NCBI GenBank assembly: GCA_934096315.1
Contig: CAKOLT010000002.1
Coordinates: forward strand, 4,108-68,107
DNA from: an uncultured Bacilli bacterium
GTDB taxonomy: Bacteria; Bacillota_I; Bacilli_A; RF39; UBA660
Reading direction: 5' to 3'
DNA: 64,000 nucleotides
Under the pieces are notes generated by a model. The model saw only the letters and a list, made by a program, of their open reading frames with translations, was not told the DNA's origin and ran no database searches. Made by a program: the position numbers and the translations under genes. Positions within the stretch are counted from its first letter, which is position 1; the number at the start of each line of letters is the position of its first letter. Below are positions 20,068 through 39,626 of the stretch, piece after piece.

Positions 20068-20763
20068 ATGAAAAAAAGCAAGAGATATATAACAAATACC
20101 CAAAAAGTAGAAAAAAATAAGTTATATACAAACGAAGAAGCCGTAAAACTAGTAAAAGAAACATCAAACGCAAAGTTTGACAGTACTATTGAAGTAGCAA
20201 TGAATCTAAACTTAGATGTTAAAAAAGCAGATCAACAACTACGTGGAGCAGTAGTACTTCCAAACGGAACAGGAAAAAGTAAGAAAATATTAGTTTTAGC
20301 CAAAGGAGATCAAGCAAAAGCAGCAAAAGAAGCTGGAGCAGACTATGTTGGAGACATGGACATGATTACAAAAATAGAAAAAGAAAACTGGTTTGACTTC
20401 GATGTAATTATTGCAACACCAGAAATGATGCCATCTCTAGGTAAAATAGGTAAATTACTTGGACCAAAAGGATTAATGCCTAATCCTAAAACAGGAACAG
20501 TAACTACAGATATAGCAAAAGCAGTTGCTGAAACTAAAAAAGGAAAAGTAAATTATCGTACGGATAGTTTTGGAAACATCCATGGAGTAATCGGAAAAGC
20601 TAGTTTTACTGAAGAAGCTTTAAATGAAAACCTAAAAGCATTCGTAAATGTAATACTTAAAGCAAAACCAACTACAGTTAAAGGTGTTTATGTTAAAAAT
20701 ATAACTATATCATCTACTATGGGTCCTGGAATTAAAATTGACATAAATTCATTTGACAAATAG
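20068..20763 (+). CDS. rplA: 50S ribosomal protein L1
   Basis: 231 aa. [49 protein letters not shown]. Confidence 0.95.
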
Positions 20764-20799
20764 TGTGAATTAGTATATAATATAAATCAATCAAAGAAA

Positions 20800-20890
20800 A
20801 ATTATGCCAAAGACAGTAAGGACGAAAGTTTAAAAATCTTACCGAGGAATAAATATCTTTTTTATCCCTCGAATTGAGGGATTTTCTTTA
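20800..20890 (+). promoter_or_regulatory. L10 (rplJ) leader with transcription-attenuator hairpin
   Basis: GACAGTAAGG...CTTACCGAGG stem. Terminator ATCCCTC (20864-20870) pairs with GAGGGAT (20876-20882), followed by TTTCTTT. An alternative CGAGG (20843-20847) / CCTCG pairing could act as an antiterminator. Position and layout fit the Firmicute L10 leader. Confidence 0.55.
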
Positions 20891-20913
20891 GGCATAAAGA
20901 AAGGAAGGAAACT

Positions 20914-21405
20914 GTGGCAAATACAAAGATAATTGAAGAAAAAAGCAATATAGTATCTGAAATAAAAGATAGACTACAAGAAGCAAAATCAATCGTACTA
21001 TTTGACTACCGTGGGTTATCAGTAGCAGAAGTTACAGAACTTAGAAAGAAACTAAGAGAAAACGGTTCTGACTACAAAGTATATAAAAATACTTTAACAA
21101 AAAGAGCAGTCGAACAAGCAGGATTACAATTAGAAGAATACCTAACAGGACCAAACGCAATTTCATTTGGAACTGACGAGTTATCAATAGTAAAAATATT
21201 AAGCGATTTTTCTAAAGACCACAAAGCTTTAGAATTAAAAGCAGGTATCATTGATGGAAAAGTAGCAAATTCTGAAGACTTAGCAAAATATGCATCTATT
21301 CCATCACGTGAAGGATTACTTACTATGTTAGCTGGTGGACTAATTGGAACTGTAAAAGACTTAAGTATTGCACTTAACTTATTAGCAGAACAAAAGGAAA
21401 ACTAA
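20914..21405 (+). CDS. rplJ: 50S ribosomal protein L10 (GTG start)
   Basis: 163 aa. SIVLFDYRGLSVAEVTELRKKLRENGSDYKVYKNTL. Confidence 0.95.
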   Translation: MANTKIIEEKSNIVSEIKDRLQEAKSIVLFDYRGLSVAEVTELRKKLRENGSDYKVYKNTLTKRAVEQAGLQLEEYLTGPNAISFGTDELSIVKILSDFSKDHKALELKAGIIDGKVANSEDLAKYASIPSREGLLTMLAGGLIGTVKDLSIALNLLAEQKEN

Positions 21406-21641
21406 TGAGAATGTACGATAAAGATGATGAAATAATAGAGGGAATGAAGAAATATCTAAAAAGCCTAAAACATCTGGCAGAAATAGACCCTATATCAGCA
21501 AGAAAAGAATCAACAGAAGCCCTTCAAAGAATGGGACTAATTGATGAAAATTTAAAATACAAATATCCATACAATGGAGAAAGGCCAAAAGGTAATGACT
21601 TTACCTACGGTCCAAAAATAAAAATTAAAGGAGGAAAATAA
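21405..21641 (+). CDS. hypothetical 78-aa protein encoded in the rplJ-rplL spacer
   Basis: The ATG shares its A with the rplJ TAA. The frame is open to TAA 21639-21641, 1 nt before the rplL ATG. AAGGAAA lies 5 nt upstream. The other two forward frames stop at 21406-21408 and 21419-21421. Confidence 0.55.
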
Positions 21642-21642
21642 A

Positions 21643-22008
21643 ATGGCAAAATTAACAAGAGAAGATTTTATCAGTGCTTTAAAAGAAATGACAATTCTTG
21701 AAATCAAAGATCTAGTAGATGCAATGAAGGAGGAGTTTGGTGTAGATCCAACTGCAGTAGCAGTAGCAGCAGCACCTCAAGCAGCAGCAGAAGAAGGACC
21801 ATCAAAAGTAAATGTAGTATTAACTTCAGCTGGTTCAAATAAAATTCAAGTAATTAAAATAGTAAGAGATCTAACTGGATTAGGATTAAAAGAAGCAAAA
21901 GAAATAGCAGATAATGGCGGAAACGTTAAAGAAGGCATTGACAAAGAAGAAGCAGAAAAAATCAAAGCACAATTCGAAGAAGCTGGAGCTTCAGTTGAAT
22001 TAAAATAA
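21643..22008 (+). CDS. rplL: 50S ribosomal protein L7/L12
   Basis: 121 aa. Ala-rich hinge [16 protein letters not shown] and C-terminal domain [21 protein letters not shown]. Confidence 0.95.
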
Positions 22009-22009
22009 T

Positions 22010-22036
22010 GAAAGTCAAAAAAAGACTTTCTTTTTT
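22010..22036 (+). terminator. intrinsic terminator after rplL
   Basis: GAAAGTC (22010-22016) pairs with GACTTTC (22024-22030), followed by TTTTTT. Confidence 0.75.
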
Positions 22037-22256: not shown

Positions 22257-25200
22257 ATGGCTTATAAATTAAAGCAAAGCGGAGATTATAGAAAAAGAAG
22301 AAATTTTTCTATGATAAAAAATTCATTAGAACTTGATAATTTATTACAAATTCAAAAAGAATCATATCAATGGTTTGTTACAGAAGGGGTAAAAGAAGTA
22401 CTTGAAGACTTTTCACCAATAGAAAGTTTTTCAGGAAGCTTAACATTAGAATTCGGAGAGTATGAGTTTGATACTCCACGATATTCTATAAAAGAATGTA
22501 AAGACAGGCAAGTAACATATGCTGCACCACTTAAAGTCCAAACAAGACTATTTAACAATGAAACAGGAGAAGTAAAGGAACAAGAAATATTTCTTGGAGA
22601 CATGCCTTTAATGACAGAAAGTGGATCATTCATAATTAACGGAGCGGAAAGAGTTGTAGTATCTCAATTAGTAAGATCACCAAGTGTATATTTTTCAAAG
22701 GAATTAGATAAAAATGGAAAACCAACTTTTTCGTCAAAAATTATTCCTACTAGAGGAACATGGCTAGAATATGAAATAGATGCTAAAGATGTAATCTATG
22801 TAAGAATTGATAGAACAAGAAAGGTTGCATTAACTACTTTAATTAGAGCCTTTGGATTATCATCAAATGAAGAAATATTAGAATTTTTTGATAACAATAA
22901 ATACATACAAAACACTATAGAAAGAGACTCAACTAAAAACACAGATGAAGCACTAATAGAAATATACGAAAAATTAAGGCCAGGAGAGCCAACAACACTA
23001 GACTCATCAAAAAACCAATTAATAACAAGATTTTTTGATAATTTTAGATACGATTTAGCCAAAGTAGGTAGATATAAATTTAACCAAAGACTAAATATAA
23101 CAGATCGTTTACTAAACAATAAAATTGCTCAAGATATTATCGTGGATGGTGAAACAATAGTAACAGATGGAACACTTATAACAAAAGAAGTACTAGAAAA
23201 ATTAACACCATATTTAGAAGGACCAAACGGTTATGGAAGAATGGAAGCTCCTGCAAATAAAGAATTAAACACAGATAACATAGTGCAAGTATTATATGTA
23301 TATTCTAACAATGAACCAGGTAAAAAAGTAAAAATAATAGGAAATGACCAAACACTAGATTTAAAAATACTAACAATTTCAGACTTTATTGCATCTGTCT
23401 CATATTACTTAAATCTATTTGAAGGAATCGGTAAAGATGATGAAATAGACCATTTAGGAAACAGAAGAATAAGACAAGTTGGTGAACTTTTACAAAACCA
23501 ATTCAAAATAGGTTTTAGTAGAATGGATAGAGTAATTAGAGAAAGAATGACTACTCAAGACATGGAAACTGTAACACCAAAAACACTAATTAACATAAGA
23601 CCAGTAACAGCAGTCATTAAAGAATTTTTTGGTAGTAGCCAATTATCTCAATTCATGGATCAAGTAAATCCAATTGCGGAATTAACACATAAAAGAAGAC
23701 TATCCGCATTAGGACCAGGAGGACTATCACGTGATAGAGCAGGTATGGAAGTACGTGACGTAAACTCCTCACACTACGGAAGAATATGTCCAATAGAATC
23801 ACCAGAAGGACAAAACATAGGACTAATAACATCATTAGCTAGTTATGCAAAAGTAGATGAATATGGATTTATTCAAACACCATATAGAAAAGTAGAAAAT
23901 AAAAAATTAACAGACGAAGTAGTATATCTAACTGCAACAGAAGAAGAAGATTATTACATATCTCAGGCAACTGTAAATGTAAATGATAACATGGAAATTA
24001 CTGACCAAACAGTAGCAGGAAGATATCGCGGAGAAAACGTAATAATCCCTGTAGACAAAGTTGACTACATAGATGTATCTCCTCAACAAGTAGTGTCTGT
24101 AACAACAAGTTTAATACCATTCTTGGAACACGATGATGCAACTCGTGCCCTAATGGGAGCAAACATGCAACGTCAAGCACTACCATTACTAACAACTGAA
24201 GCACCATTTGTTGGAACAGGAGTAGAATACATCGCTGCCAAAGATTCAGGAGCAGTAGTAGTAGCTAAAGCAGACGGAATAGTAGAATACGCAGATGCTA
24301 AAAAAATTATAGTTAAAAATGCTAAAGGTAAAGACAACTATACTTTAACAAACTTTGAACGTTCTAACCAAGGTGAAACAAACAACCAAAGACCAATCGT
24401 AAGAAAGGGAGATAGCGTAAAAAGAGGACAAATAATTGCTGATGGACCAAGTACAGATAAAGGAGAGCTAGCCCTTGGAAAAAATGTAGTAGTAGCCTTT
24501 ATGACATTTAACGGTTATAACTTCGAAGACGCCGTAATTATGAATGAAAGACTAGTAAAAGATGACGTTTACACATCTTTACACATAGAAGACTACGAAT
24601 TACAATGCCGTGATACAAAATTAGGACCAGAAGAAATAACAAGAGATATACCAAACGTAAGCGAAGAATTACGTAAAAATCTTGATGCAAACGGTATAAT
24701 AAGAATAGGAACAGAAGTAAAAGAAGGAGATATTCTTGTAGGTAAAGTAACACCAAAAGGTATGGCTGATTTAACAAGCGAAGAAAAACTACTACATGCA
24801 ATATTCGGTGAAAAAACAAGAGAAGTAAGAAATACATCATTAACAGTTCCTCACGGAGGAGAAGGTATAGTCCATGATGTAAAAGTATATACAAAGAAAG
24901 ATAACGACGATCTTCCAAGCGGAGTAAGTAAAGTCGTAAGAGTATATATAATCCAAAAAAGAAAAATACAAGTCGGAGATAAAATGGCCGGAAGACACGG
25001 AAATAAAGGTGTAATATCACTAATATTACCACGTGAAGACATGCCATATTTACCAGATGGAACTCCAGTAGATATAATGCTAAATCCACAAGGTGTACCA
25101 TCACGTATGAATATTGGACAAATACTAGAATTACACTTAGGAATGGCTGCCAAAAAATTAAATGTCCATGTTGCAACACCTGTATTAGATGGTGCTAAAA

Positions 25201-25910
25201 AAGATGATATTGCAGAAATGATGAAAGAAGCAGGTATGGATGAAGACGGAAAAACAGTTTTATACGATGGTAGAACTGGAGAACCATTTGACAATAGAAT
25301 AAGTGTCGGTGTTATGTATATGATTAAATTACATCACATGGTTGATGATAAATTACATGCACGTGCTACAGGACCTTACTCATTAGTAACACAACAACCA
25401 CTAGGAGGAAAAGCCCAATTCGGAGGTCAAAGATTCGGAGAAATGGAAGTATGGGCACTGGAAGCCTATGGAGCAGCACATGTACTACAAGAAATACTAA
25501 CATATAAATCTGATGATGTCCTAGGACGTGTGAAAGTATATGAATCAATAGTTAAAGGAACAGCCTTACCATCACCAGGATTACCAGAATCATTCAGAGT
25601 ATTAATAAAAGAATTCCAAGCATTAGGACTAGATATATCAGTAATTAATAATGATGATGAAATTATAGATATGAGACAGTTAGAATCTGATGAAGAAGAT
25701 GACGACATAGTAATTGAAGAAATACCAAAGTCAAACCCATTCAGAGATACTGACGATGATGACGAAGATGATGAATTCGATGATGGCGAATTACCAGAAG
25801 AAGACGAAGATGAACTTGAAGATGAAATAGAATATGCTAAAATGGAAAACGAAGAATACGAAGAAGCACTAAACGATATTAACGAAGATAATCAAGGAGG
25901 TGAAATCTAA
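22257..25910 (+). CDS. rpoB: DNA-directed RNA polymerase subunit beta, with a long acidic C-terminal tail
   Basis: 1217 aa with canonical beta motifs ([45 protein letters not shown]). 40 of the last 75 residues are D/E by hand count. Confidence 0.97.
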
Positions 25911-33157: not shown

Positions 33158-34138
33158 ATGTTTAAAATAGGAAATATTGAAATAAAAAACAATATAGTTT
33201 TAGCCCCCATGGCAGGAATATGTAACAGTGCTTTCAGAAAAATAATAAAAGAAATGGGCTGTGGTCTAATTTATGCCGAAATGGTAAGCGATAAAGCATT
33301 AATATATAATAGCAAAAAAACAATGGACATGCTCTATTTCGAAGATAAAGAAAGACCCATTGCTCAGCAAATCTTTGGAAGTGACAAAGAATCATTTGTC
33401 CAAGCTGCAAAATTAGTATATGAAACAGTAAAACCAGATATAATAGATATAAATATGGGTTGCCCTGTACCCAAGATAGCGGTCAAATTGCAAGCCGGAG
33501 CAGCACTTCTAAAAAATCCATCTTTAATAAAAGAAATAGTAACAGCAGTAGTCCAAGCAGTACCAATTCCCGTAACAGTAAAAATAAGAAGTGGCTGGGA
33601 TAACAATAGCATAAATGCTGTAGAAGTCGCAAAAATAATTGAAGAATCTGGAGCATCTGCTATAACTATTCACCCCCGTACCAGAAGTGCAGGATACAAA
33701 GGAAAACCAGATTTAGAAATAATAAAAAAAATAAAAGAAACAGTATCAATTCCCGTAATAGGAAATGGTGATATAACAGACATAGAAAGTGCCAAAAAAA
33801 TGTTTGAAGTAACCAAATGTGACGCTATAATGATAGGAAGAGCCACTCTCGGGAATCCCTGGATAATAAAACAACTAGTAACATATTTTGATACCGGAGA
33901 AATATTACCCCCTCCAACTAATGAAGAAAAAATAGATCTTGCATTAAAACACCTAGATTATCTTCTTAAACAAAAAAATGAAAAAATATCAGTTCTAGAA
34001 ATGAGAAGCCATATAGCATGGTATTTAAAAGGAATGCCTAATACAGCATTAGTTAAAAACAAGTGCTTTAAAGCAGAAACAGAAGCAGAACTAAAAACTA
34101 TACTAAATGATTACAAAAAAGAATTAAATATTTATTAA
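33158..34138 (+). CDS. dusB: tRNA-dihydrouridine synthase B
   Basis: LAPMAGICNSAFRKI, DINMGCPVPKI, AITIHPRTR, NGDI. 326 aa. The position before lysS matches Bacilli. Confidence 0.9.
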   Translation: MFKIGNIEIKNNIVLAPMAGICNSAFRKIIKEMGCGLIYAEMVSDKALIYNSKKTMDMLYFEDKERPIAQQIFGSDKESFVQAAKLVYETVKPDIIDINMGCPVPKIAVKLQAGAALLKNPSLIKEIVTAVVQAVPIPVTVKIRSGWDNNSINAVEVAKIIEESGASAITIHPRTRSAGYKGKPDLEIIKKIKETVSIPVIGNGDITDIESAKKMFEVTKCDAIMIGRATLGNPWIIKQLVTYFDTGEILPPPTNEEKIDLALKHLDYLLKQKNEKISVLEMRSHIAWYLKGMPNTALVKNKCFKAETEAELKTILNDYKKELNIY

Positions 34139-34205: not shown

Positions 34206-34787
34206 ATGAATACAAGTTTTTTTACAAGAGCATCAGCTTATATTATAGATGCCATTATAGTACTAATAATACTAAATATTATAACAATAGGAGTTCCAAC
34301 AAACAATTCATATAACGAAAAAATTACAGAGTTAACAAAACAATTATCAAACGGTGAAATAACAACTCAAGAATACTATGACCAGTACGCTGACGTATAT
34401 TACGATCTCCAAAAATCAAATACTGTAGTGAATGTAATATCAATAATACTAACAATAGCATATTTCATAGTATTTCAATACCTAAACAAAGGTCAGACTA
34501 TAGGTAAAAAACTATTTAACTTAAAAATAGTAAGTACAGATGAAAAACCAATAAAACTCTCACAAATAATAATAAGAAGTATATTTATTTACAGCCTAAT
34601 ATCAGCAATATTAAACATAATATTTGTATACATAATAGGCAAAGACTCTTATTATATGGTAAGCACTATCACAACCATGATAGATACCTTACTTATCCTT
34701 ATAACAGTAATATTTATACTATTTAGACAAGATAAAAGAGGAATACATGATGTAATTGCTAAAACAAAAGTAATAAAAGAAATTTAG
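34206..34787 (+). CDS. RDD family membrane protein
   Basis: RASAYIIDAIIV..., ...GQTIGKKLFNLKIV..., ...RGIHDVIAKTKVI. Contains TM helices. Confidence 0.7.
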   Translation: MNTSFFTRASAYIIDAIIVLIILNIITIGVPTNNSYNEKITELTKQLSNGEITTQEYYDQYADVYYDLQKSNTVVNVISIILTIAYFIVFQYLNKGQTIGKKLFNLKIVSTDEKPIKLSQIIIRSIFIYSLISAILNIIFVYIIGKDSYYMVSTITTMIDTLLILITVIFILFRQDKRGIHDVIAKTKVIKEI

Positions 34788-34798
34788 GAGGAAAAGAA

Positions 34799-36253
34799 AT
34801 GAAGTACACAGAACAAGAATTAGTAAGAAGAGAAAAACTTAAAAATATACCAAACCCGTATCCTGAAAAATACGAGATAACTCATGAATTAAAAGACGCA
34901 AGAAACCTAGAAGATGGAAGCAGTGATGTAAAAGTCGCAGGTAGAATAATTTTAATGCGTAAAATGGGGAAAATGTCATTTATAACTATTGGGGATATTG
35001 AAGGAAAATTACAAGTCTCACTAAAATTAGATCTATTAGGAGAAGAAAAATACAACTTCTTTAAAAACAATATAGATATTGGAGACTTTATTGGAGCAGA
35101 TGGAGAAATATTTACAACCCATACTGGAGAAAAAACATTAAGAGCATCAGATTTCACTTTCCTTGGAAAGGCACTAAAACCACTCCCAGAAAAATTTCAT
35201 GGATTAGAAGACATAGAAACCATTTATCGTCAAAGATATGTAGATTTAATAATGAATGAAGACGCTAGAGACAAATTTCTATTTAGAAGCAAATTCATAA
35301 AAGAAATAAGAAAGTATCTAGATAACCTAGGATACATTGAAATAGAAACCCCAATATTACTAAATAAAGCAAGTGGAGCTACAGCAAGACCATTCATAAC
35401 ACATCATAATGCCCTAGATGTAGACCTATACCTAAGAATTGCCCCAGAAACATATCTAAAAAGAGCAGTAGTAGGAGGATTTACCAAAGTATATGAAGTA
35501 GCTAGATGTTTTAGAAATGAAGGAATGGATGCAACACACCTACAAGACTTTACAATGCTTGAAGCTTATGGAGCATACCTAAATTATCAGGATAACATGA
35601 AATTAACAAGAGAAATGCTCCAAACAATAATTTCAAACATATTTGGTACTCTAAAAATAAATTTTGGGGACAAAGAAGTAGACCTAAGCGGAGAGTGGGA
35701 AGCTATATCATTTAGAGACTTACTTTTAAAATACTGTGATATAGACTTAAATATATATGACACAAAAGAAAAATTATTAGACAAAATAAAAGAACAAAAA
35801 ATAGATATAGACAGTGAAGTACCACTAGAAAACCTAGGATATGGAAATCTAGTAGATCAGTTATATAAGAAAGTAGCAAGACCAAATATAGTTAACCCAA
35901 TATTCTTAACAAAACACCCTATAGACTTATCACCACTAGCAAGAGCAAATGACGAAAACCCTAATATAACAGACAGATTCCAATTAGTTATAAATGGAGC
36001 AGAAATAATAAATGCATATTCCGAATTAGTAGATCCAACTGAGCAACAAAAAAGACTTCAAAAACAAGCAGAGTTAAAAGAAAAAGGCGATGAAGAAGCT
36101 ATGCCAATGGATACAGAATACATCGAAGCAATGGAATATGGAATGCCACCAATAAGTGGTTGGGGTATGGGAATAGATAGATTAGTACAATTATTAACCA
36201 ATTCCAAAAACATTAAAGACGTAATAATGTTCCCATTAATGAAGAAAAAATAA
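34799..36253 (+). CDS. lysS: lysine--tRNA ligase (class II)
   Basis: OB-fold N-terminus (VKVAGRIILMRKMGKMSFITIGD), class II motifs (FRNEG, GWGMGIDRL). 484 aa. Confidence 0.93.
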   Translation: MKYTEQELVRREKLKNIPNPYPEKYEITHELKDARNLEDGSSDVKVAGRIILMRKMGKMSFITIGDIEGKLQVSLKLDLLGEEKYNFFKNNIDIGDFIGADGEIFTTHTGEKTLRASDFTFLGKALKPLPEKFHGLEDIETIYRQRYVDLIMNEDARDKFLFRSKFIKEIRKYLDNLGYIEIETPILLNKASGATARPFITHHNALDVDLYLRIAPETYLKRAVVGGFTKVYEVARCFRNEGMDATHLQDFTMLEAYGAYLNYQDNMKLTREMLQTIISNIFGTLKINFGDKEVDLSGEWEAISFRDLLLKYCDIDLNIYDTKEKLLDKIKEQKIDIDSEVPLENLGYGNLVDQLYKKVARPNIVNPIFLTKHPIDLSPLARANDENPNITDRFQLVINGAEIINAYSELVDPTEQQKRLQKQAELKEKGDEEAMPMDTEYIEAMEYGMPPISGWGMGIDRLVQLLTNSKNIKDVIMFPLMKKK

Positions 36254-38104: not shown

Positions 38105-38803
38105 TCATAATTGCTTGTTATTTTTCAAAAATTCTCTTAAAATTTTCGTAGTAGCCCTCTTTTCAATTCGAGAAACATAACTTCTAGAAATACCCATCTC
38201 TTTAGCTATTTCTTTTTGAGTAATTTCATTATTACCATCTAACCCATATCTCTTAATCAAAATATCTCTCTCCCTATCCGTCAAAACCTTTAAATATTCT
38301 TTTAAAAAAACTATATTATCATTTTTATAAATTTCCTCAATAAAATCAGTTTCTGGAGTCTTTAAAATATCCAAAATAGTTATCTCATTACCTTCCTTAT
38401 CATAACTAATCCCATCATATAAACTAATATTTTTACTATTCTTTTTATCAGCCCTAAAGTACATAAGAATTTCATTCTCTATACACTTAGCAACATAAGT
38501 AGTAAGCTTAACCTTCTTATTTAATGAGTAAGTATCAATACCCTTAATAAGACCAATAGTACCAATACCAATCAAATCATCAACATCATGTTCACTCGTT
38601 TCAAACTTTTTAACAATATGAGCCACTAACCTAAGATTATGCTCAATAAGTTTACTTCTTGCCTCCCCATCACCATTCTTAGCCTTTATAATACACTCTT
38701 CTTCTTCTTCCTTTTCCAAAGGCATAGGAAAAATATTATTAGAATAAGAACCAGTAAATAAATTCATATTCTCTATAAGAGTATTAAGTATATTAAATAA
38801 CAT
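38105..38803 (-). CDS. sigK: RNA polymerase sporulation sigma factor SigK (pro-form, uninterrupted)
   Basis: NNIFPMPLEKEEE..., LIEHNLRLVAHIVKKFE, GIGTIGLIKGIDTYS, CIENEILMYFR and EIAKEMGISRSYVSRIEKRA match B. subtilis SigK better than SigE/G. Start ATG 38803 lies 5 nt after GGAGG. Confidence 0.85.
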   Translation of the reverse strand: MLFNILNTLIENMNLFTGSYSNNIFPMPLEKEEEEECIIKAKNGDGEARSKLIEHNLRLVAHIVKKFETSEHDVDDLIGIGTIGLIKGIDTYSLNKKVKLTTYVAKCIENEILMYFRADKKNSKNISLYDGISYDKEGNEITILDILKTPETDFIEEIYKNDNIVFLKEYLKVLTDRERDILIKRYGLDGNNEITQKEIAKEMGISRSYVSRIEKRATTKILREFLKNNKQL

Positions 38804-38954
38804 AACAACCTCCATTAAATTATAATACATAAAAACAAAAAATATGAAAATTTGACAATATTCTATTTTTATGATAATATATAATCACAATTTATTTAAA
38901 TCAATTGACAAAACTAATTTTTTTTGAGAAAATTATAATAGAGGTGATGTAAGT

Positions 38955-39282: not shown

Positions 39283-39626
39283 TTTATCTGGACAAACGCT
39301 GCAGATTCCTGTAGAGGAAAGTCCACGCTCGCACTGTCTGTGATGACAGTAGTGTTTGTGCATAGGGAAAAAATAACCTATGGCAGTATTTACTGACGGC
39401 GGATATTATACCTAAAGAAATATTCCATGGTATAAATCATAAAGTGCCACAGAGACGAGTTATTTAGAAATAAATAAGTGAAACGAGGTAAACCCCACAA
39501 GCGAGAAACCCAAATTACGGTAGGGGAACCACCCAAAGAGAAACGAATCTAATGGTGGATGGTTAAAACCATAGATAAATGTTTGTCGCCTTTATTAAGG
39601 TACAGAACGTGGCTTATAAGATAATA
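39283..39626 (+). ncRNA. rnpB: RNase P RNA, type B (Firmicute type), compact (~345 nt)
   Basis: GCUGCAGAU...CUGUAGAGGAAAGUCCACGCUCGCAC, GUAGUGUUUGUGC, AAAGUGCCACAGAGACGA, GGUAAACCCCACAAGCGAGAAACCCAAAUUACGGUAGGGGAACC and ACAGAACGUGGCUUA. The P1 ends are UUAUCU / AGAUAA. Exact ends are +/- a few nt. Confidence 0.9.

Follow-up and report, generated by a model that had tools for sequence, protein, structure and literature searches.

A probable small-protein gene of an unannotated family inserted between rplJ and rplL in an uncultured Bacilli bacterium

We find that an uncultured Bacilli bacterium of the gut probably carries an additional small-protein gene, here called X, that was inserted recently between the genes for the ribosomal stalk proteins L10 (rplJ) and L7/L12 (rplL). 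The gene lies in a 64,000-nucleotide (nt) stretch of contig CAKOLT010000002.1 (assembly GCA_934096315.1), which we call the window and whose positions we use throughout; loci and proteins outside it bear L and P numbers. Few gene pairs in Bacteria are as conserved and as tightly regulated as rplJ-rplL, whose products are needed at about 1:4 (L10 to L12) and are controlled jointly through the L10 leader. With a probability that we put at about 0.8, X is a true gene for a small protein that entered the genome within the lineage of this species, exactly after the stop codon of rplJ and ahead of the ancestral rplL leader. This reading is based on comparisons of sequence at the junction and on homologous proteins encoded elsewhere.

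X fills the space between the two ribosomal genes. Its start codon and the rplJ stop codon share one A (a TAATG overlap, read from the sequence), and its own stop codon lies 1 nt upstream of the rplL ATG at 21643. The junction is composed of the following features (aa, amino acids; E, expectation value):

20914-21405, + strand: rplJ, ribosomal protein L10, 163 aa, GTG start, stop TAA at 21403-21405 (Pfam Ribosomal_L10, E 3.8e-30)
21394-21400, + strand: Shine-Dalgarno-like AAGGAAA within the last rplJ codons (read from the sequence)
21405-21641, + strand: X, 78-codon gene found as an open reading frame (ORF), ATG at 21405-21407, stop TAA at 21639-21641
21406-21619, + strand: inserted DNA of ~214 nt, absent from all close relatives (junction comparison; right boundary within 2 nt)
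21620-21642, + strand: retained ancestral rplJ-rplL spacer including the rplL Shine-Dalgarno (23 of 23 nt identical to L018)
21643-22008, + strand: rplL, ribosomal protein L7/L12, 121 aa (Pfam Ribosomal_L12_N, E 2.2e-16; Ribosomal_L12, E 1.5e-26)

The rplL Shine-Dalgarno, AAAGGAGGA (21627-21635), lies inside the final codons of X (KIKIKGGK*). It is a strong site of rplL's own, placed 7 nt before the rplL ATG. At the other end of X, AAGGAAA stands 4 nt upstream of the start codon, and its AGGA core ends 6 nt before it. The remaining two forward frames close at 21406-21408 (TGA) and 21419-21421 (TAA). Given the base composition of the window (29% G+C, with an in-frame stop frequency of 0.0855), 77 successive codons would all be open with a probability of 1.0e-3, and shuffled versions of the spacer put it at 1.45e-3. 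The G+C content of X (31%, and 0.215 at third codon positions) is near the values of the neighbouring genes, and the other loci of its family that we retrieved are also AT-rich (26-28% G+C). An earlier reading of the letters alone, which we refer to as the original prediction, had described this arrangement correctly: the coordinates of the ORF, the shared A, the 78 codons, the 1-nt gap to rplL, the rplL Shine-Dalgarno within the last codons, the immediate closure of the other two frames and a chance probability of about 1e-3. It had also noted the AAGGAAA inside rplJ, which is present, and had placed it 5 nt from the start codon, a distance that we measure as 4 nt.

X belongs to a conserved family of small proteins that has no name and no Pfam or NCBIfam model. 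The first lead came from a comparison of rplJ relatives, with one genome per species, in which an ORF at the same place in L045 aligned with X (BLASTP E 3e-4, a single comparison). A seed profile made from X and the L045 ORF, scored against 1.84 billion (1.84e9) representative proteins, matched 71 proteins at E<=1e-3 and seven at E<=1e-10. When X was compared by hmmsearch with a leave-one-out hidden Markov model (HMM) of 30 family proteins (alignment A4 without X), it scored 56.8 bits (E 9e-20), with residues 8-72 aligned. Family members are mostly 58-100 residues long, and their alignments give the motif Y(L/I)..LK.L...NPE.AKK.A.E.L.R.G(I/L)(I/L)D..G.L..PYNG..V...DFTRGP. The core of this motif is retained in X as the L..G(I/L)(I/L)D..G turn and the PYNG(x7)DFxxGP tail, minus one residue of the turn and with tyrosine at R68. 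Among the invariant columns, X keeps P29, A32, E38, L40, G44, N57, G58, F66 and G69. Furthermore, gene calling recovers X on 22 metagenome contigs from this species, with the order rplJ-X-rplL every time.

Only the exhaustive profile search brought the family to light. Word-indexed protein searches with X and with the L045 ORF each recovered only the query itself, X as a cluster of four variants from the same species, and a metagenome scan with alignment A4 found only five loci. X has zero Pfam matches at E<=1, and neither X nor its family has anything significant in Pfam, NCBIfam, PHROGs or PADLOC. The best PHROG matches have E 0.32 for X and 0.13 for P0005, with none for ten fusion proteins, and PADLOC, which covers anti-phage defence and toxin-antitoxin systems, has none at E<=0.1 for X and five other family members. 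Four large proteins that had matched, P0009 (plectin repeats), P0048, P0054 and P0075, were rejected as spurious low-complexity or repeat matches. The original prediction of a gene for a small, largely helical, lysine- and glutamate-rich protein is thus supported by the leave-one-out score and by the helices in AlphaFold2 models (below). Its statement that no family could be recognised is superseded: a family exists and is unannotated.

The spacer that X occupies is normally short. With one genome taken per species, it measures 12-62 nt in 72 of the 75 species with measurable junctions, and three species, L045 among them, have ~230 nt instead of ~20 nt. Close relatives of the window species have a non-coding spacer of 12-40 nt, and the nearest (L10 67-78% identical) one of 16-28 nt. 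The 3' end of X coincides with what is left of this spacer. Window positions 21620-21642 (aaaaattaaaggaggaaaataaa) are identical over 23 nt to the 3' part of the L018 spacer (taaaaaattaaaggaggaaaataaa) and are also near the spacers of L022, L020 and L013. This ancestral sequence now encodes X residues 73-78 (KIKGGK) and the X stop codon. Since the 3' part of the spacer has been kept and the spacers of relatives are short, we conclude that ~214 nt were inserted directly after the rplJ stop codon.

Insertion was the second option offered by the original prediction, and the junction comparison bears it out. The other option was a stalk- or ribosome-associated factor. A conserved stalk component is refuted by the short non-coding spacers of close relatives, which had been named beforehand among the findings that would count against the prediction. 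A physical association with the stalk finds no support, profile-profile comparison with L10 and L12 being negative. The absence of X from all close relatives argues against any core stalk role. Note that the short spacers of relatives do not refute a coding gene, because amino-acid conservation, which had been proposed as a check, is strong through homologues at other loci.

X lies within the rplJL transcription unit. The signals that delimit this unit are as follows:

20753-20781, + strand: sigma-70-type promoter, TTGACA-17 nt-TATAAT, 12 of 12 matches (consensus scan; pattern match only)
20789-20896, + strand: L10 leader, Rfam RF00557 (cmscan, 63.2 bits against a gathering score of 44, E 8e-9)
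20864-20882, + strand: terminator-like (attenuator-like) hairpin and T run within the L10 leader (consensus scan)
22010-22030, + strand: terminator-like hairpin and T run after rplL, closing the rplJ-X-rplL unit (consensus scan)

From rplA to rpoB, the consensus scan of the + strand found no other promoter that matches the full consensus, and between rplJ and rplL it found no promoter- or terminator-like site on that strand. A scan with Rfam covariance models found no Rfam family within 21405-21641. The L10 leader, whose presence upstream of rplJ had been predicted, matches the full RF00557 model (1-138). Feedback by L10(L12)n acting on the leader is established for RF00557. Because a single promoter, the L10 leader and a single terminator surround rplJ-X-rplL, X is probably co-transcribed with the two ribosomal genes. 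It is probably also coupled to them in translation, and its embedding among the stalk genes, where it overlaps rplJ by one nucleotide and ends 1 nt short of rplL, is as originally described. The AAG-GAA version of the Shine-Dalgarno-like element lies in the last codons of rplJ in all three species with an X-family insert (the window, L045 and L113), and any AGGA, GGAG or GAGG occurs in the last 15 nt of rplJ in 13 of 72 insert-free species. Since these three carriers represent two independent events, the enrichment (3/3 versus 13/72) is weak support for coupling. Starts in other junction inserts are arranged as TAA-T-ATG in L045 and L113 and as TAATG in L051 and L060.

Genes of two protein families have entered this junction on at least three occasions, all in a single group of uncultured bacteria from the gut. 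In a neighbour-joining tree of concatenated L11, L1, L10 and L12 (685 columns), insert carriers fall in three separate clades with insert-free species around each. The window species stands alone in the first clade, the sisters L045 and L113 form the second, and L051 and L060 form the third; L046 and L048, close relatives of L051 and L060, have no insert. The inserts of L045 (P0005) and L113-L115 (P0014, on three contigs) belong to a different X-family subfamily, with a DHYxDHDPYL tail. The nearest relatives of this subfamily are P0030 and P0060, and those of X are P0006-P0008. Because the subfamilies differ and the clades are separate, two captures make a more parsimonious history than a single ancient one with many subsequent losses, and we regard the DHYxDHDPYL insert as probably independent of the X insert. 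The two have in common the junction position, the near-overlap with the rplJ stop codon, AAGGA in rplJ and a homologous N-terminal hairpin, but they differ in C-terminal motif, nearest relatives and clade in the ribosomal-protein tree. After rplL, L113 has a methyltransferase gene with MTS/PrmA-like Pfam matches (L113:4673-5257), which is not found after rplL in the window.

The third clade carries an unrelated gene at the junction, a member of DUF1653 (PF07866), in L051 (Clostridium sp. CAG:1193) and in L060, a metagenome-assembled genome (MAG):

L051:3492-3716: DUF1653 gene (Pfam E 4e-17, 62.9 bits against a cut-off of 23.5)
L060:3492-3737: DUF1653 gene, Hadza-gut MAG (Pfam E 9e-16, 58.4 bits against a cut-off of 23.5)

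These genes resemble X in junction, TAATG overlap and size (74-81 aa), and in keeping the rplL Shine-Dalgarno at their 3' end. The L060 ORF meets no stop codon ahead of the rplL ATG and extends into rplL by 3 nt. X itself is not a DUF1653 member, given its lack of any Pfam match. Moreover, DUF1653 homologues occur in 17 phage records (human faecal phages among them, at up to 51% identity) and 20 plasmids, whereas no such homologues were found for the X family in the phage and plasmid collections searched (below).

Other family members are best sampled next to lysS. At seven related loci (P0101, P0094, P0104, P0079, P0111, L109 and L112) the family gene is directly downstream of lysS, whose identity was confirmed with NCBIfam TIGR00499. 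The gap is 26-156 nt or holds one HipA_C gene, and the genes beyond vary (HipA_C, Fic, DUF378 and a large surface protein). Representatives of the family (P0006-P0008, P0081 and P0101; ~60-100 aa) share with X the two-helix hairpin, the G(I/L)(I/L)D turn and the PYNG...DFxxGP tail. They differ from it in that the best-sampled members lie after lysS and X lies between rplJ and rplL, and in that X lacks one residue of the DxxG turn and has its native tail swapped for six residues from the rplL leader. In the window, lysS (34799-36253) is followed by a gene for a 474-aa membrane protein and no X-family gene; a scan of the window with the family HMM recovered X and no further member. Upstream of this lysS are dusB (33158-34138) and then a membrane-protein-like ORF with no NCBIfam match (34206-34787).

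In several gut metagenome loci (L102:2905-3795, L116:4414-5274 and L118:2435-3040), lysS and the family gene are neighboured by genes for short kinases of the HipA_C type (286-296 aa) or by a Fic gene. HipA-type kinases target aminoacyl-tRNA synthetases. The order of the HipA_C and Fic genes near lysS-linked members varies, and they are not present at all loci. Searches of mobile elements gave nothing for X, P0030 and P0081 in GenBank phages and PLSDB plasmids, and no family member in IMG/VR, which was scanned with the family alignment, P0030, P0019 and a back-translated PYNG...DFTRGP pattern. On a phage-like contig with several PHROG matches, L120:2351-2533 encodes a 60-aa member of the DHDPYL type; its gene is one of a series of small ORFs that follow an RtcB ligase gene on one strand.

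Overall, the X family is constrained but fast-evolving, with the constraint mostly in its motifs. Ratios of non-synonymous to synonymous divergence (dN/dS) are about 0.2-0.3 for most pairs of lysS-linked family genes. The DUF1653 gene of L051 and L060 has a dN/dS of 0.16, like that of rplJ, and is under purifying selection. Within the window species, synonymous and non-synonymous polymorphic sites number 4 and 6 in X, 5 and 5 in rplL, and 24 and 13 in rplJ. The variants of X include changes at conserved residues, G69D in P0004 and Y52C in P0003. For some species pairs among L102, L116 and L118, synonymous divergence (dS) is 0.17-0.20 in the family gene versus 0.79-0.85 in the adjacent lysS, and the order of the family gene relative to HipA_C differs among the three loci. 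Low dS together with changed order suggests that species have recently exchanged the small gene. In L093, which is of the same species as the window, a 120-nt block of rplJ (window 21036-21156) has ~25 differences, 10 amino-acid changes among them, and the rest of the locus is nearly identical; this block looks like a recombination tract or an assembly chimera.

The AlphaFold2 model of X (mean predicted local distance difference test score, pLDDT, of 79) has helices at residues 3-27 and 29-42 arranged as a hairpin, and that of P0101 (pLDDT 76) shows the same elements. In both models the two helices are followed by a short beta-turn, at GLID in X, and then by the conserved PYNG...DFxxGP stretch at low confidence. 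A stretch that is conserved but is not predicted to fold alone is typical of a peptide that becomes ordered on a partner, and we read X as a docking or adaptor module whose tail folds onto that partner. Fusions of the domain are also found. It occurs at the C-terminus of larger, otherwise unrelated proteins, namely a CDP-alcohol phosphatidyltransferase (P0053), transmembrane proteins (P0051) and several proteins with unknown N-terminal domains, as well as in tandem repeats (P0028 and P0036). A sequence-profile search of the PDB returned only a designed pentatricopeptide-repeat (PPR) protein, at E 5e-4, without any stretch that was significant alone. Mimicry of the L12 N-terminal dimerisation domain by the hairpin was considered and rejected, because hhalign of the family against L12 and L10 alignments gave probabilities below 1%.

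If X is expressed as its position suggests, it would be transcribed only within the rplJL mRNA and so would be subject to feedback through the L10 leader. Ribosomes finishing rplJ would start X at the overlapping TAATG, aided by AAGGA in the last rplJ codons. Translation of rplL would begin in one of two ways, with ribosomes that have terminated on X 1 nt upstream or with ribosomes that initiate anew at the strong Shine-Dalgarno of rplL itself. The X protein may then dock on its partner through the conserved PYNG...DFxxGP peptide.

Several observations weigh against this reading of X and of its setting. X departs from its family at near-invariant positions: NPE is changed to DPI, the G of the DxxG turn is lost, and the R of DFTRGP is replaced by Y. 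Its native C-terminal tail is lost as well, and X may have undergone some decay. The ratio of non-synonymous to synonymous polymorphism (pN/pS) in X is roughly 0.4, on a rough count of few sites in a sample that was ascertained through the intact protein, so that disrupted alleles could not appear. Between L045 and L113, dN/dS is 0.64 for the X-like gene, compared with 0.11 for rplJ and 0.20 for rplL. The lysS-linked loci form one clade (lysS 70-93% identical) and count as one event with conserved synteny, not seven. Family members also lie away from translation genes: one between genes for VanZ and a penicillin-binding protein (PBP), one between nrdG-like and recX-like genes (neighbours named from sequence reading), and P0030 on a phage-like contig, where RtcB and members of several PHROG families are its neighbours. 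Lastly, Foldseek found nothing below E=1 in the PDB or among the viral structures of BFVD, and X has no similarity to Ribosomal_L10, Ribosomal_L12_N or Ribosomal_L12 in Pfam or by hhalign.

What the inserted gene does may be explained in more than one way. The translation apparatus is our leading candidate for the partner of X, because family members occur at rplJ-rplL twice and after lysS in a whole clade. We hold this tentatively and consider it well short of probable; the positions beside translation genes (rplJ-rplL twice, lysS once) are only suggestive. In a stronger and unlikely version, the junction would be a selected docking place, and in gut Bacilli with reduced genomes the X family and DUF1653 would both be new accessory factors of the L10(L12)n stalk or of the GTPase-associated centre. 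The L10 leader and translational coupling would keep their output in fixed proportion to that of the stalk proteins, and X would bind through PYNG...DFxxGP. At least as likely as a link to translation, and not far from an even chance, is that X is a hitch-hiker, a small gene of mobile origin, such as a moron-like gene from a phage, that settled in a junction which is highly expressed and permits insertions, and that is kept or tolerated for reasons unrelated to the stalk or translation. The recurrence at rplJ-rplL would then have no functional meaning, as an insertion after a stop codon and before an intact Shine-Dalgarno would be harmless. The invasion of the same junction by the unrelated DUF1653 (Pfam E 4e-17), whose homologues are found in phages and plasmids, fits this explanation, as do the phage-like contig of P0030 beside RtcB, the low dS (0.17 versus 0.83 for lysS) and variable gene order that suggest recent movement of some lysS-linked genes, and the confinement of insertions to a single species or sister pairs. 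Against it, the X family was not found in GenBank phages, plasmids or IMG/VR and has no PADLOC or PHROG family. Furthermore, the family reached the junction twice from different subfamilies and holds a constant place after lysS amid changing neighbours, which exceeds random landing.

The remaining alternatives dispute that X is a working gene of its own. It could be a decaying insert, once a real gene and now a neutral remnant that is still open by chance. The missing native C-terminus, the substitutions at near-invariant positions, the within-species variants at conserved residues (G69D and Y52C) and a pN/pS that is not clearly below 1 are consistent with decay, but the 22 contigs, which come from many samples, keep an intact frame. 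A 78-codon frame would close fast without selection in such AT-rich DNA (P ~1e-3 for random sequence), the core motifs are retained at 56.8 bits, and the start overlaps the rplJ stop with an SD-like (Shine-Dalgarno-like) AAGGA present; we therefore consider decay improbable. That X is a chance ORF in an unusually long non-coding spacer, for instance one holding a regulatory RNA, might be thought from the short spacers of close relatives and the lack of a match to any annotated family. This is extremely improbable: the score of X against a profile lacking X excludes it, as X is homologous to dozens of independent small proteins, and there is no Rfam family in 21405-21641. Just as hard to credit is a C-terminal extension of L10 made by programmed -1 frameshifting into the X frame. 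This frame is indeed open for nine codons upstream of the ATG, from 21378, overlapping the end of rplJ. However, by reading, no X_XXY_YYZ slippery heptamer occurs in the last rplJ codons (GAA CAA AAG GAA AAC TAA), family members elsewhere are free-standing and start at the equivalent methionine, and L045 and L113 have a 1-nt gap and a different frame relation. We therefore retain the reading of X as a lineage-specific small-protein gene.

X is an accessory gene embedded in a ribosomal-protein operon that otherwise follows the canonical plan. Like the rplJL operons of Bacillus subtilis and Escherichia coli, that of the window opens with a leader RNA, places rplJ ahead of rplL, gives rplL a strong Shine-Dalgarno of its own and closes with a terminator. 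It departs from them at the spacer, which is short and non-coding in canonical operons (~60 nt in Bacillus-type loci) and is filled by a third cistron in the window. A spacer of about 66 nt has been described for many species (PMC13001810). Our literature search turned up no description of a gene at the rplJ-rplL junction and a single, incidental mention of DUF1653.

Three further features of the window were noted. RpoB (22257-25910, 1217 aa) has an extremely acidic C-terminal tail of roughly the last 110 residues (window 25650-25910). Positions 38105-38830 (- strand) encode a sporulation-type sigma factor, for which the best NCBIfam match is SigK (296 bits, subfamily cut-off 252), followed by SigE; a SigK-like sigma factor would be worth noting should the organism belong to the gut Bacilli with reduced genomes. 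A class B RNase P RNA (39284-39621, + strand, 290 bits) fits an organism of the Bacilli or Mollicutes type.

X is thus an unusual cistron, apparently coupled to rplJ and read through the ribosome-binding site of rplL, of a kind that has arisen at least three times from two families. It also defines an unannotated small-protein family that is found mainly in metagenomes. Either these genes would represent a new stalk- or translation-associated factor, or they may exemplify how small mobile genes settle in those operons of compact genomes that are expressed most highly. In both cases the result would bear on how small proteins are gained and on how much disturbance ribosomal-protein operons tolerate.

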